Below are positions 15,105-20,001 of a DNA stretch of 36,813 nucleotides, one piece after another. Positions within the stretch are counted from its first letter, which is position 1. Each line of letters begins with the position of its first letter. Source of the DNA: an uncultured Clostridia bacterium (lineage in GTDB: Bacteria > Aerophobota > Aerophobia > Aerophobales > B3-G15); the NCBI GenBank assembly GCA_964482715.1, contig CAYZYX010000016.1, positions 1 through 36,813 on the forward strand, given 5' to 3'. Below the pieces are notes generated by a model. The model had not been told where the DNA came from and searched no databases. It worked only from the letters and a program-made list of their open reading frames with translations. A program made the translations under genes and the position numbers.

Positions 15105-16493
15105 TCACCTTATCTTTTTTCTAAGATGATTTAAAATTAAGATTGAAAGGTCTGTTATATCTCCTGCGCCTACCGTTATTACCAGATCCTTTTCTTTAAT
15201 ATTTTCACTTATAAATTCTAAAATCTCTTTCCAGGAGGAAAAAAAATAGGTGGGGAATTTTCTCCTTCTGGAAACTGCCTCAAAAAAAACCTCCTCGCTT
15301 ACTCCCTCAATAGGCCTCTCGCCAGCTGAGTAAATGGGGGTTAAAATAAGAACATCAACCTCTTCAAAGGCCTCCGCAAATTGAGGCAGAAAAAAACGTG
15401 ATCTTGTGTAGCGATGTGGTTGAAATATAACCAGGGTCCTTCTTCCCAGACGACGAATTTCCTTTATAGTAGCCTTAATTTCAGTGGGATGGTGAGCATA
15501 ATCATCAAATATCCAGATAGACCCTGCTTCACCTACCTTTTCCATTCTTCTTTTTACACCACTAAAAAAGCTAAGAGTTTTCTTTATTCTTTGCCAGGAA
15601 ATGCCAAGTTCAAGTCCAGCACAGATTGCAGCCAGACTGTTGTAAACATTGTGAATTCCAGCCAGAGGAACATCAACCCTGCCCAAAAGGTGAGTCCTGT
15701 AGTAAACACTGAAAGATGACTTAAGAGGGGAAAGTTCAATATTTCGGGCCATTATATGGGATTTATTTTTAATCCCGTAGGTAAAAATCTTTCTCTTTAG
15801 ATTTCTGGTGTGGATAAGATGATTGATTGGAGGATCATCCAGATTTAAAACCAGGAAACCCCGGGATTTAACCCCCTCCATAAATCGGTAAAAGGCAAGA
15901 AGAAGGTCTCTTTTTGAGCCATAATACTCCAGGTGATCATCTTCAATGTTGGTGACTACCCCCACACTGGGATGATGGAGAAGAAAGGAGCCATCAGATT
16001 CATCTGATTCCACAATCATCCATCTACTTTTTCCCAGCCGGCTGTTTGATTGTATCCTGTTTAATATGCCCCCTACCAGCAGGGTGGGATCCCGGCCCTC
16101 TTCCAGAAGAAGCTCGGCAATGAGGGAAGCTGTGGTGGTTTTCCCGTGAGTTCCAGCTACAACTATACTTTCCTTTAAGTTAGAGATTTCGGCTACCAGT
16201 TTTCCCCGTGAAACAAGGGAAATCCTTTTTCTTCTTGCCTCTTTGATTTCCGGATTATCCTCCCCTATAGCTGAAGAAAAAACAACAAGGTTGGCGTTTT
16301 TTACCCGGGCTCCCCTGTGTCCCTGACTGATAGAAGCCCCCATTTTTTTGAGTTTCCGGGTAAAGGCGTTTTCTTTAAGATCAGAACCTGTAACCCTGTA
16401 TCCTGCCTGAATAAAGATGCCCGCCAGTCCACTCATACCTATTCCACCAATCCCGACAAAGTGAAAGTGCATTTTAGACCTCACTCCGGCCAT
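15105..16493 (-). CDS. murC: UDP-N-acetylmuramate--L-alanine ligase
   Basis: HFVGIGGIGMSGLA, GTHGKTTT, ESDESDGSF, DDYAHHPTE, FQPHRYTR. Confidence 0.97.
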   Translation of the reverse strand: MAGVRSKMHFHFVGIGGIGMSGLAGIFIQAGYRVTGSDLKENAFTRKLKKMGASISQGHRGARVKNANLVVFSSAIGEDNPEIKEARRKRISLVSRGKLVAEISNLKESIVVAGTHGKTTTASLIAELLLEEGRDPTLLVGGILNRIQSNSRLGKSRWMIVESDESDGSFLLHHPSVGVVTNIEDDHLEYYGSKRDLLLAFYRFMEGVKSRGFLVLNLDDPPINHLIHTRNLKRKIFTYGIKNKSHIMARNIELSPLKSSFSVYYRTHLLGRVDVPLAGIHNVYNSLAAICAGLELGISWQRIKKTLSFFSGVKRRMEKVGEAGSIWIFDDYAHHPTEIKATIKEIRRLGRRTLVIFQPHRYTRSRFFLPQFAEAFEEVDVLILTPIYSAGERPIEGVSEEVFFEAVSRRRKFPTYFFSSWKEILEFISENIKEKDLVITVGAGDITDLSILILNHLRKKIR

Positions 16494-17586: not shown

Positions 17587-18696
17587 TTATTTCTTTTTAC
17601 CCCATATGTAAACTACCGGTGTGGCTACAAAACTTGAAGAATAAGTACCTACTATTACACCTACAAGGAGGGTAAAGGTGAAGGCACGTAGAGGCTGCCC
17701 ACCCCAGAGGAAAAGAACAAGAACTACAATAAAAGTGGTCAGGGAAGTGATAACAGTTCTCGAAAGTGACTGGTTTATACTTAGATTCAGGATGCTTCTA
17801 ATCAGTGTTTTTCTTTTTCGGTGGGTTTTCATATTTTCTCTTATTCTATCGTAGATGACTATGGTGTCGTTTAATGAATAACCCACAATGGTTAAAAGTG
17901 CTGCTATAACAGGCAAAGTAAATTCGTAGCCTCCCAGAGAAAGTGCTCCCACACTGATGACTACATCGTGAATAAGCGCAATAACTGCTCCCACGGCAAA
18001 TCTAAATTCAAACCGCCAGGCAATGTAGATGAGCATCCCGATAAGGGCAAAAATAATTGCCAGAATTGCACTGCGCTGAAGCTCCTTGCTCACCTTAGGG
18101 CCGATAAGGTTTATACTTATTATCTCAAAGGGGTTTTTTTCACCAAACTGCTCTTTCATTGCCTGCTCAATCCGGGAAACCATCTGGCGAGAATTCACTT
18201 CCTGAATAATGGAGGTAAGAGTTTCCCTATCAACCTTGTTTAAATTTACTCTTCCCTCGGCCTGAGGTTCAACAGTAAAAATGGCAGCAAGATTCTCATA
18301 ACCTACTCCCTCAATAGCGGGGACATTTTTTAACTCCTCTACACTTTCAAATCCCCCCTTTTTCTCCCGATAATCTATAATACCGGTAGCAATATCTTCA
18401 GAGATTCTCTCCATGTGATACCTTACCAGCACAGTGTTTTCGCTTCGAGGACCGTATTGCTGAATAACGGCTCTTCCCAGTCCAACTTTTGCCAGGGCCT
18501 GCCTTATCTGGCTTATAGATGGAAAATTCTCAAATCGAGCATGAACTTCAATCCCTCCGGTAAAATCAAGACCCAACCCGGGTCCACCCTTTACGATGAG
18601 AGAAATAACCCCTGCGGCAATAGCTATTGCCGAGATGACGAAAGCTATTTTCCTTAATCCGATAAAATCAATTTTAGTCTCTCCAAAAAACTGCAT
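17587..18696 (-). CDS. secF: Protein translocase subunit SecF with an inserted HhH-like domain
   Basis: GLDFTGG, IGPKVSKEL, ALIHDV, GYSLNDTIVIYDRIREN, GTYSS. Extra ~70 aa in the periplasmic loop. Confidence 0.95.
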   Translation of the reverse strand: MQFFGETKIDFIGLRKIAFVISAIAIAAGVISLIVKGGPGLGLDFTGGIEVHARFENFPSISQIRQALAKVGLGRAVIQQYGPRSENTVLVRYHMERISEDIATGIIDYREKKGGFESVEELKNVPAIEGVGYENLAAIFTVEPQAEGRVNLNKVDRETLTSIIQEVNSRQMVSRIEQAMKEQFGEKNPFEIISINLIGPKVSKELQRSAILAIIFALIGMLIYIAWRFEFRFAVGAVIALIHDVVISVGALSLGGYEFTLPVIAALLTIVGYSLNDTIVIYDRIRENMKTHRKRKTLIRSILNLSINQSLSRTVITSLTTFIVVLVLFLWGGQPLRAFTFTLLVGVIVGTYSSSFVATPVVYIWGKKK

Positions 18697-18708: not shown

Positions 18709-20001
18709 TTATATGCTGAGTTTCTGAACAGGTTTTCCTGCAAGAATCAGATTAAATATACTCCTTGTTACCACCACTGCTGTGAAAAGACTTGCCAGTA
18801 TTCCTATGGAAAGAGTGGTGGCAAATCCCTTTATGGGACCACTTCCAAACTGAAAAAGAATAAGAGCGGTAATTAAAGTGGTAATGTTGGCATCAAGGAT
18901 CGTTCTTAGAGCTCTATCGTAACCTGTATCAACTGCTGAACGGGGGGCTCTTTCTTTTTTTAACTCTTCCCGGATTCTTTCAAATATAATCACGTTAGCA
19001 TCCACACTCATACCAATGGTGAGGATTATTCCAGCAATTCCGGGTAAGGTAAGAGTTGCTTTGAGAGCAGCCAGAGCAGCCATTAAAAAAAGTAAATTAA
19101 GAAATAAAGCTGCATCAGCAATGAGCCCTGCCTTTTTGTAATAAATCCCCATAAATATAAGAACAGCTATAAGTCCGATGAGTCCGGAGATTAAACCCTT
19201 CCTGATTGAATCTCTCCCCAGCGAAGGACCAATGGTTGTGTTCTGGATTATATTAAAAGGAACAGGCAGTGCACCACTTTTTAAGACAATTCTAAGTTCA
19301 TTAGCCTCTTCCATGGTTCCAATTCCTTCAATAACAGCTTTCCCACCCGTAATCCGGGTCTTTATAACGGGGGCCGATTTTACCACATTATCCAGAACTA
19401 TGGCAAGTCTTTCTCCCACGTGTTTTCCTGTAATATCGGCAAACTTTTCTGCGCCCTCACTGGTGAAATCAAGTGCAACATAAGGCCTTCCCCACTGGTC
19501 AATCTGGACTCGAGCGTCCTTTATGGCACCACCAGTCAGGAGAGCTTCTTTTTTAACCAGGTAGGGTTTTCCCTCCGAATTGTAAAGGATTTCATCATCA
19601 GAAGGGACCATACCCTTGAGAGCCTCTTCCAGGTCACCCTTTTCATCAACCAGCTTAAACTCAAGAAGGGCGGTTTTCCCAATAAGTGCAATGGCTCTTT
19701 GAGGATCCTCAATTCCTGGAAGATCTACCACAATTCTCTTTTCACCTTCCCTTACTATGGTGGGTTCTCTTACTCCAAACTGGTCAATACGATTGCGTAT
19801 AATTTCCAGAGCCACATCTACAGCATCTCTAACATTTTCCCCTGGAGGGAGTTTCTTTACATCGGCTTCCAGAACAAGATGCATCCCTCCCCTTAAATCA
19901 AGACCAAGGTTAATTTTTTCCCCGGGAGGATAAATTGCCCATATGGAGAGAGCAACCAGAGCAACAACAAAAAGAAGCACCCATTTACTGTATCCTCGCA
20001 T
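18709..20001 (-). CDS. secD: Protein translocase subunit SecD
   Basis: LGLDLRGG, RIDQFGV.EP, LAIVLD, IGPSLG, GMSVDANVIIFERIREE. Confidence 0.97.
   Translation of the reverse strand: MRGYSKWVLLFVVALVALSIWAIYPPGEKINLGLDLRGGMHLVLEADVKKLPPGENVRDAVDVALEIIRNRIDQFGVREPTIVREGEKRIVVDLPGIEDPQRAIALIGKTALLEFKLVDEKGDLEEALKGMVPSDDEILYNSEGKPYLVKKEALLTGGAIKDARVQIDQWGRPYVALDFTSEGAEKFADITGKHVGERLAIVLDNVVKSAPVIKTRITGGKAVIEGIGTMEEANELRIVLKSGALPVPFNIIQNTTIGPSLGRDSIRKGLISGLIGLIAVLIFMGIYYKKAGLIADAALFLNLLFLMAALAALKATLTLPGIAGIILTIGMSVDANVIIFERIREELKKERAPRSAVDTGYDRALRTILDANITTLITALILFQFGSGPIKGFATTLSIGILASLFTAVVVTRSIFNLILAGKPVQKLSI

Follow-up and report, generated by a model that had tools for sequence, protein, structure and literature searches.

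A ComEA-type helix-hairpin-helix module, probably in circularly permuted order, in the periplasmic domain of an Aerophobetes SecF

SecDF is a proton-driven helper of the general secretion channel, and the P4 domain of SecF is usually regarded as a passive base. The periplasmic domains of SecDF are believed to take charge of proteins as they emerge and may also contact outer-membrane machinery (review, PMC8669966). Here we analyse a SecF whose P4 domain carries an additional module of the ComEA type, encoded in a 36,813-nucleotide contig of an uncultured Aerophobetes bacterium (CAYZYX010000016.1; the whole stretch is called the window). The module shares with the DNA-binding domain of ComEA a helix pattern made of a pair of helix-hairpin-helix (HhH) motifs linked by a loop (PMC9747964). 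An earlier note, made from the DNA letters, had read residues 98-165 of this SecF as a circularly permuted ComEA-like insert and knew of no described SecF of the kind. The residues that it quoted are present exactly in the translated protein, and in the literature searched, mostly titles and abstracts, we likewise found no SecF or SecDF with an HhH insert and no permuted HhH domain.

A ComEA-type module between strand beta3 and helix alpha2 of P4

The product of secF (Table 1) is a genuine SecF. It scores 300.7 bits against the NCBIfam SecF equivalog profile TIGR00966 (cut-off 160) and matches Pfam PF02355 (SecD_SecF_C) at E 3.4e-66. The full-length AlphaFold model, based on an 82-row alignment (predicted local distance difference test, pLDDT, 80.0), has the membrane fold of resistance-nodulation-division (RND) transporters and aligns with T. 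thermophilus SecDF (3aqp_A) in VIA-align at Z 21.9, with 282 residues aligned and a root-mean-square deviation (rmsd) of 3.5. Foldseek matches to this model were to SecDF and RND transporters only (5yhf, E 3.2e-13), so the insert cannot be judged by that search.

The P4 fold is recovered around the insert. VIA-align places 80 of the 92 residues of the solved P4 domain 2rrn across model residues 44-199 (Z 8.6, rmsd 2.7), and therefore about 75 residues in this range form an excursion from the fold. The excursion lies between P4 strand beta3 (residues 88-94) and helix alpha2, where the TIGR00966 match is broken into two flanking stretches, the second starting at residue 152, and where insert-less SecF relatives of 300-308 residues have a clean gap of ~66-70 residues. 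In the translation of secF, residues 98-165 (window 18202-18405) read IATGIIDYREKKGGFESVEELKNVPAIEGVGYENLAAIFTVEPQAEGRVNLNKVDRETLTSI... The elements predicted in the SecF model are the P4 strand (88-94), helices 98-113, 119-124, 128-131 and 133-137, a bridge between strands 139-140 and 150-151, and a helix at 157-184 that is continuous into P4 alpha2.

At the left edge of the insert, where its first helix starts with S-E-D-I-A-T-G-I-I (residues 98-107, window 18376-18405), three insert-less proteins (P0096, P0100 and P0104) read S-x-x-x-A-S-K-I-V, and the outgroup SecFs read S-S-D-F/L-A-S/G. The first turns of helix 98-113 may be ancestral SecF sequence. Because the helix begins in this ancestral-looking way, the left boundary is uncertain by ~8 residues, and the resemblance hints at a junction formed at similar sequences.

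Pfam HHH_3 (PF12836), the family to which ComEA's DNA-binding domain belongs, matches SecF at 36.7 bits (cut-off 27; E 4.5e-9), pairing residues 95-138 with profile positions 19-62 of 65, and the isolated 68-residue piece scores 38.9 bits. Searched against PDB, the insert profile finds ComEA structures 8dfk (E 3.1e-5) and 8dss (E 1.7e-4). More narrowly defined models stay under their cut-offs: the NCBIfam ComEA models score SecF at 28.1 versus 152 and 26.6 versus 53.1, and the insert reaches 19.1-20.6 versus 24.2 bits with Pfam T2SSK (PF03934, GspK) and 22.7 versus 130 with NF037980 (GspK). No Pfam match of PsbU to the insert was found. The earlier note had also called the hairpin degenerate, and in the window SecF the position of the ComEA G-I-G indeed reads A-I-E; in most relatives it is G-I-E, with glycine in 70% of 63 sequences at residue 127 and glutamate in 90% at residue 129.

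It is hardly credible that this segment is an ordinary variable part of P4 whose likeness to HhH arose by chance. The second TIGR00966 stretch does begin inside the insert, leaving its C-terminal piece partly alignable with normal SecF. Against this, the Pfam score lies over a curated cut-off, hhalign gives E 1.2e-16, and 40 proteins match the insert at E<=1e-10 in a library of representative proteins, those scanned all carrying HHH_3; these three results refute the ordinary P4 segment, and the entire segment is missing from insert-less SecFs. With Pfam above its cut-off and P4 recovered around the excursion, a ComEA/HHH_3-type insert in the periplasmic domain of SecF, as first noted, is confirmed.

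Order of the parts and closure of the fold

A canonical HHH_3 unit runs from an xNxN cap through HhH1 and a loop to HhH2. We built a profile of this unit from 515 units in the 145 tandem HHH_3 proteins that a search with the insert had brought up, using the ComEA domain encoded in the same genome as seed. With hhalign, residues 98-136 (the N piece of the insert) align with unit positions 17-55 (Prob 98.8, E 1.2e-16). Residues 150-163, the C piece taken by itself, align with positions 1-14 (Prob 85.7, P 5.4e-6). Shuffling the columns of the C piece 200 times never reached the real score (maximum 13.0 versus 22.8). The insert thus departs from the canonical order, and the unit is broken between its positions 14 and 17, within the first P-G-I-G hairpin. 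Re-permuting the insert profile, a check that the earlier note had proposed, covers 55 of the 56 unit columns and raises the hhalign score from 68.8 to 80.6.

The same arrangement is seen in pairwise comparisons. BLASTP against the ComEA of the same genome pairs insert residues 4-42 with ComEA 21-59 (44% identity, E 1e-8) and insert residues 52-69 with ComEA 1-18 (50% identity, E 4e-4), the two matches standing in swapped order. EEPD1 (9YI2), the best solved-structure match by sequence (insert profile E 4.9e-9), has tandem HhH domains ahead of an endonuclease/exonuclease/phosphatase domain; there the two pieces are adjacent and in canonical order, with insert positions 52-68 matching three residues ahead of positions 4-38, twice. 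A hidden Markov model (HMM) of the C piece alone gave 10 matches at iE<=0.01 in tandem proteins, nine of them in exact unit-start register. Residues of the displaced helix follow canonical units as well: N153 is invariant in the 63 insert sequences (N in 99% of units at position 4), residue 160 is leucine in 90% (73% at position 11), and residue 163 is aliphatic. The hhalign, BLASTP and EEPD1 comparisons agree on the swapped order proposed in the note and place the C-terminal two thirds of the unit ahead of its xNxN cap and first helix, and we regard the insert as very probably a ComEA-type HHH_3 module in circularly permuted order.

From P4 strand beta3 the chain would then run into helix 2 of HhH1, on through the loop and all of HhH2 and over a 13-residue beta-linker, before HhH1's xNxN cap and first helix lead it back into P4 alpha2. 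Because the displaced HhH1 helix runs unbroken into alpha2, P4 itself would occupy the place of the first G-I-G hairpin. A model of the insert alone (78 residues, 23-row alignment) has pLDDT 89.0 and a predicted template modelling score (pTM) of 0.76, and its secondary structure equals that of the whole-protein model, including the 139-140/150-151 bridge. These models suggest that the permuted module closes in three dimensions.

Several results weigh against a closed, permuted domain. A plain canonical-unit HMM, run on 122 SecF-family proteins, does place a second match in the correct register in most insert-bearing proteins, but the C piece earns only -3.4 to +8.8 bits per protein and noise elsewhere in SecF reaches ~5 bits. 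As these scores are no better than noise, the profile-profile tests with shuffles were relied upon. For the insert-only model, Foldseek returned 0 matches at E<=0.001 and VIA-align nothing at Z>=5. HhH proteins stand at VIA-align ranks 1, 20 and 34, namely Tex (3bzc_A; Z 4.2, rmsd 2.7, 51 aligned), GspK (3ci0_K; Z 3.6, rmsd 2.3, 52 aligned) and ComEA (8dss_B; Z 3.4, rmsd 2.5, 47 aligned, 38% identity), each tying with unrelated helical proteins, and these relatives cover model residues 1-60 only. The aligners are apparently sequential and therefore cannot score the displaced helix; that it packs into its canonical place we infer from model confidence only.

These results bear on a different account, in which no closed permuted domain exists and the insert is a truncated HhH remnant of one and a half motifs, tolerated as a spacer without a specific role. 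The VNLN... segment would then be left over from the next unit of a tandem array and merely lengthen alpha2. The last helix is continuous with alpha2 in both models, fold-search alignments stop at module residue 60, contiguous matches cross unit junctions as expected from a plain array slice, and the insert has been lost at least twice, with an apparent further loss in the metagenomic protein P0106. Set against this are a pTM of 0.76 over 78 residues, which indicates a single compact body, and the conserved core of the displaced helix (N153, L160 and the aliphatic residue 163, as in canonical units); since a bare helical extension needs no such conservation, the core speaks against an exposed extension. 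The ratios of nonsynonymous to synonymous substitution (dN/dS) of 0.24-0.61 and an identity of 52.6%, near the 56.6% of the P4 core, argue against neutral drift. We consider the remnant clearly unlikely.

Distribution, origin and function of the module

We surveyed 31 species genomes of the phylum, all from one order. The insert is present in a SecF-sized frame in 23 of the 31, or 23 of the 27 species that could be assessed, which answers the note's proposal to look among SecF orthologues. Intact SecFs without the insert occur in four genomes (G025, G026, G027 and G029). SecF is cut by a contig end at the insert site in two others (G014 and G019), and two gave no SecF with our query (G002 and G009; completeness 69% and 74%). 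A precomputed HHH_3 call is attached to 93 of the 120 best SecF relatives listed; alignment shows the insert in P0089 and P0092 too, and the other 25 are without it. No longer proteins (647-2000 residues, for example fused SecDF) with the insert were found, which is weak evidence.

A maximum-likelihood tree of 27 Aerophobetes and 4 outgroup SecFs, built with the insert columns removed, needs three changes, which we read as one gain and two losses; its starred branches force at least two. One genus contains both states, with G028 (insert) and G029 (no insert) as sisters at support 100/99. Separately, the metagenomic protein P0106 shows an apparent further loss. The insert is under purifying selection: in the six of eight close pairs with finite values its dN/dS is 0.24-0.61, compared with 0.16-0.42 for the P4 core and 0.06-0.22 for the membrane part, and the insert is close to the P4 core in mean pairwise identity (52.6% and 56.6%, respectively). 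Given purifying selection together with repeated loss, the module is selected yet dispensable.

Where the module came from is suggested by its matches. A search of 1.84 billion representative proteins with the insert gave 1074 matches at E<=0.001, of which 40 reach E<=1e-10; most of the top 150 of these 1074 contain 3-5 matched stretches. The scanned matches outside SecF include 10 tandem or double HHH_3 proteins, some with SLBB, PLD-like nuclease or GmrSD_C domains. The insert HMM reaches residue 160 or further, across a unit junction, in 99 of 453 significant matches, and the 13-residue length of the insert linker is the single commonest unit spacing in tandem HHH_3 proteins (50 of 370 junctions). 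A register-shifted slice of a tandem duplicate is the classical route to a permutation. We infer an origin from a tandem array: the module would be a register-shifted slice of a tandem ComEA-like array, or of a duplicated ComEA, gained a single time at the root of the Aerophobetes SecF clade, with at least two later losses. A donor from within the lineage is possible, because the genome's own ComEA and the best global matches resemble the insert to an equal degree. Elsewhere in this genome, a 394-residue protein with a radical-SAM-like C-x-x-x-C-x-x-C motif ends in a canonical HHH_3 unit (L003:1381-2565, minus strand, contig C18).

The features on which ComEA relies for DNA are largely gone from the module. 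In V. cholerae ComEA, according to PMC3879209, DNA binding requires the lysine pair K62/K63 beside the HhH1 G-I-G hairpin, G60E or G60V in that hairpin weakens DNA uptake, and removal of either HhH motif ends binding. The SecF module lacks two G-h-G hairpins: that of HhH1 (unit positions 15-18) is replaced by the P4 junction, and that of HhH2 reads A-I-E or G-I-E, followed by a conserved, family-specific G-Y-E. Within the insert family, lysine or arginine stands at residue 101 in 11% of sequences (aspartate or glutamate in 60%) and at residues 102 and 104 in 0%. At canonical-unit positions 20, 23 and 24 these basic residues occur in 30-39% of units, versus 11%, 0% and 16% in the insert. Net charge is -7 in the window module and -4.75 on average in 63 relatives, compared with +0.3 in canonical units and +2 in the genome's own ComEA domain.

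DNA binding by the insert in the manner of ComEA is unlikely. With the HhH1 hairpin opened, the lysine pair gone, HhH2 reading G-I-E and the charge at -7 versus +2, the earlier note's suggestion of a nucleic-acid-binding module is not supported. The GspK-like interaction that the note offered as an alternative may still apply, with a T2SSK match under its cut-off. The permutation opens the HhH1 hairpin, the contact positions are acidic or neutral, the second hairpin is G-I-E and the module is negatively charged; therefore a former DNA-binding fold appears to have been re-used on P4. Such re-use would parallel GspK and PsbU, extracytoplasmic HhH relatives that bind proteins and are not known to bind DNA through this fold. 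Tentatively, we favour an acidic knob on P4 that serves protein contact or structure and does not bind DNA as ComEA does. Such a rigid accessory knob might contact the mobile P1 head of SecD, a periplasmic partner or the emerging substrate, and would be helpful but dispensable to SecDF. A predicted complex of SecD P1 (residues 30-250) with the insert scored 0.00, a value obtained without controls that speaks neither for nor against binding.

This functional reading has its own weaknesses. It is built on absent features and not on a positive sign of a partner. Repeated loss means that the module is dispensable, and a weak or conditional role is indistinguishable from a specific one. No SecD insertion or deletion tracks loss of the insert in the alignment of SecDs from species with and without it. 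In addition, an acidic HhH could bind DNA via bridging cations.

We find improbable a rival reading in which the module has kept the ability to bind DNA, or some other polyanion of the periplasm, and tethers this ligand to the proton-driven SecDF as an inner-membrane-anchored receptor like ComEA. The module is clearly derived from a ComEA-type DNA-binding domain and sits in ComEA's own compartment. Its HhH2 is complete (glycine in 70% at residue 127, G132 in 97% and R110 invariant among the 63 sequences), ComEC, a secretin and Omp85 are encoded in the genome and make periplasmic DNA traffic plausible, and a probable second HhH-like graft in SecFs of Acidobacteriota (see below) hints at a common selective reason. 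Against these stand the destruction of the HhH1 hairpin by the permutation and the missing lysine pair, where loss of K62/K63 or of either HhH abolishes binding in V. cholerae ComEA (PMC3879209), the glutamate in place of the second-hairpin glycine in 90% of sequences, and a charge of -7 (family mean -4.75) versus +0.3 and +2. The genome also already has a canonical ComEA. Taking identity, permutation, origin and function together, the explanation preferred here, a permuted ComEA-type module derived from a tandem array and re-used as an acidic knob, is rather probable as a whole.

Related SecFs, gene neighbourhood and comparison with described systems

A second HhH-like insert, this one unpermuted and at another loop of P4, seems to occur in SecFs of Acidobacteriota. 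A Bryobacterales-type SecF of 389 residues (L014:6001-7167, plus strand) has an insert of ~85 residues between alpha2 and beta4, and 30 relatives (P0271-P0300) have the same type of alpha2-beta4 insert; SecFs of this type (P0270-P0300) are ~390 residues long. The protein-language-model neighbours of the window SecF are Acidobacteriota SecF clusters of 391-407 residues, one Atlas cluster having 2,423 members; this serves as a lead only.

The HhH likeness of the Acidobacteriota insert comes from hhalign alone. Its C-terminal part aligns with canonical unit positions 19-56 (Prob 91.2, 0 of 200 shuffles reaching the score), its N-terminal part with positions 1-13, in register and in canonical order (1 of 200 shuffles), and the insert as a whole, over 57 columns, with the Aerophobetes profile in its re-permuted form (Prob 84.6). 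Pfam HHH_3 is matched by none of 28 members at E<=1, and a search of PDB with the family profile brought up no HhH chain at E<=10. A bolder proposal is that ComEA-derived HhH modules were grafted onto P4 independently in two unrelated phyla, and that P4 is a docking platform that couples SecDF movements to a periplasmic ligand; this we hold to be doubtful. If both grafts were true, selection would have repeatedly favoured an HhH knob on P4, and the ligand, either a protein partner or some polyanion (DNA held via bridging cations, for example), would lie beyond the textbook model of SecDF.

The positions of the module, its parts and the genes concerned are given in Table 1.

Table 1. Position of secF, secD and the parts of the inserted module in the window, with the ComEA of the same genome
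Feature	Position	Strand	Description	Basis
secF	17587..18696	minus	369 aa; stop codon within coordinates	TIGR00966, PF02355, AlphaFold model
Periplasmic P4 domain of SecF	18100..18567	minus	aa 44-199; ferredoxin-like fold; host of the insert	VIA-align to 2rrn
Inserted module	18193..18405	minus	aa 98-168; ~70 residues; boundaries +/- ~8 residues	gap in insert-less relatives, predicted elements
N piece	18289..18405	minus	aa 98-136; second helix of HhH1 and entire HhH2; hairpin P-A-I-E-G	Pfam, hhalign, BLASTP
Linker	18250..18288	minus	aa 137-149; 13 residues; predicted small beta-hairpin joining old C-end to old N-end	models
C piece	18208..18249	minus	aa 150-163, VNLNKVDRETLTSI; xNxN cap and first helix of HhH1, moved to the end	hhalign, BLASTP, HMM
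secD	18709..20001	minus	430 aa; partner subunit; 12 nt upstream of secF	TIGR01129
Own ComEA	contig C11		transmembrane anchor, SLBB-like part, one HHH_3 unit	

The product of secD scores 484.3 bits against TIGR01129 (SecD; cut-off 244.4) and contains the Pfam domains SecD_1st, SecDF_P1_head and SecD_SecF_C. SecD and SecF form a single pair in this genome, which also has one RND-like frame of 1030 residues. The names of close relatives in the databases assign the genome to Candidatus Aerophobetes. The neighbours of the pair are trpS, murG, murC and rplI. The murG and murC frames overlap by 20 nt (window 16474-16493, minus strand), 3 nt separate the end of secF from the start of murG, and trpS-secD-secF-murG-murC has the appearance of a single tightly packed transcription unit. 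The genome encodes ComEA, ComEC and a secretin, and it also encodes Omp85, so the SecF insert faces a true periplasm.

SecF and SecD vary at other sites as well. SecFs of 441-453 residues in one Aerophobetes family (f2; P0022, P0038, P0054, P0102, P0106 and P0109; loci L024-L026, L028 and L030) have a C-terminal tail of ~75 residues in which lysine, arginine and glutamate abound and which closes with KKKRR-like runs; from the topology of SecF this tail is expected to be cytoplasmic. Some insert-less relatives have shorter C-terminal SecF tails. In one insert-less genome (L050; G027, family f5) the SecD frame starts with an additional stretch, ...GGRKLAIIFDNVVK..., that resembles a second partial copy of the P1 head and is absent from all other aligned SecDs; a duplication or a misjoined frame is possible.

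A conserved, selected module across a candidate phylum, and probably in Acidobacteriota too, suggests that P4 can have a function of its own. The insert offers a natural example of circular permutation as a way to fit a domain with badly placed ends into a loop, the domain being opened at a hairpin in its interior, and of a DNA-binding fold being re-used outside the cytoplasm once its DNA-contact features are gone. An automatic HHH_3 or ComEA annotation in these SecFs should not be taken as a sign of competence or DNA binding.

Among described proteins, the HhH relatives differ from the SecF module in order and setting. EEPD1 is eukaryotic and intracellular and has its HhH motifs at the terminus, whereas the SecF module is inserted and permuted. 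The best matches, with E down to 7e-20 and 35-52% identity, are arrays of tandem HHH_3 units that occur in secreted nucleases and ComEA-like proteins (4-5 units in P0122-P0134, for instance); they are free-standing repeats in canonical register with a mean charge of +0.3, whereas the insert is a single register-shifted unit within SecF. GspK and PsbU are extracytoplasmic and belong to the same HhH superfamily, and their two Pfam families also pick up the tandem units matched by the insert; we know of neither as a permuted insert in a transporter.

The closest parallels are ComEA and the solved SecDFs. The ComEA DNA-binding domain (PF12836; structures 8DSS and 8DFK) is homologous to the insert and, like it, extracytoplasmic. 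The ComEA domain is terminal, whereas the insert is permuted, opened in the HhH1 hairpin and embedded in another domain, and it has lost the G-I-G hairpins and the lysine pair and carries a net charge of -7 versus +2. The SecDFs of T. thermophilus and Deinococcus radiodurans (3AQP, 5XAN and 2RRN) are like the protein described here in the whole of SecF, in the P4 fold and in the adjacent SecD; they have only a short link between beta3 and alpha2, at the place where the Aerophobetes SecF carries its HhH module.

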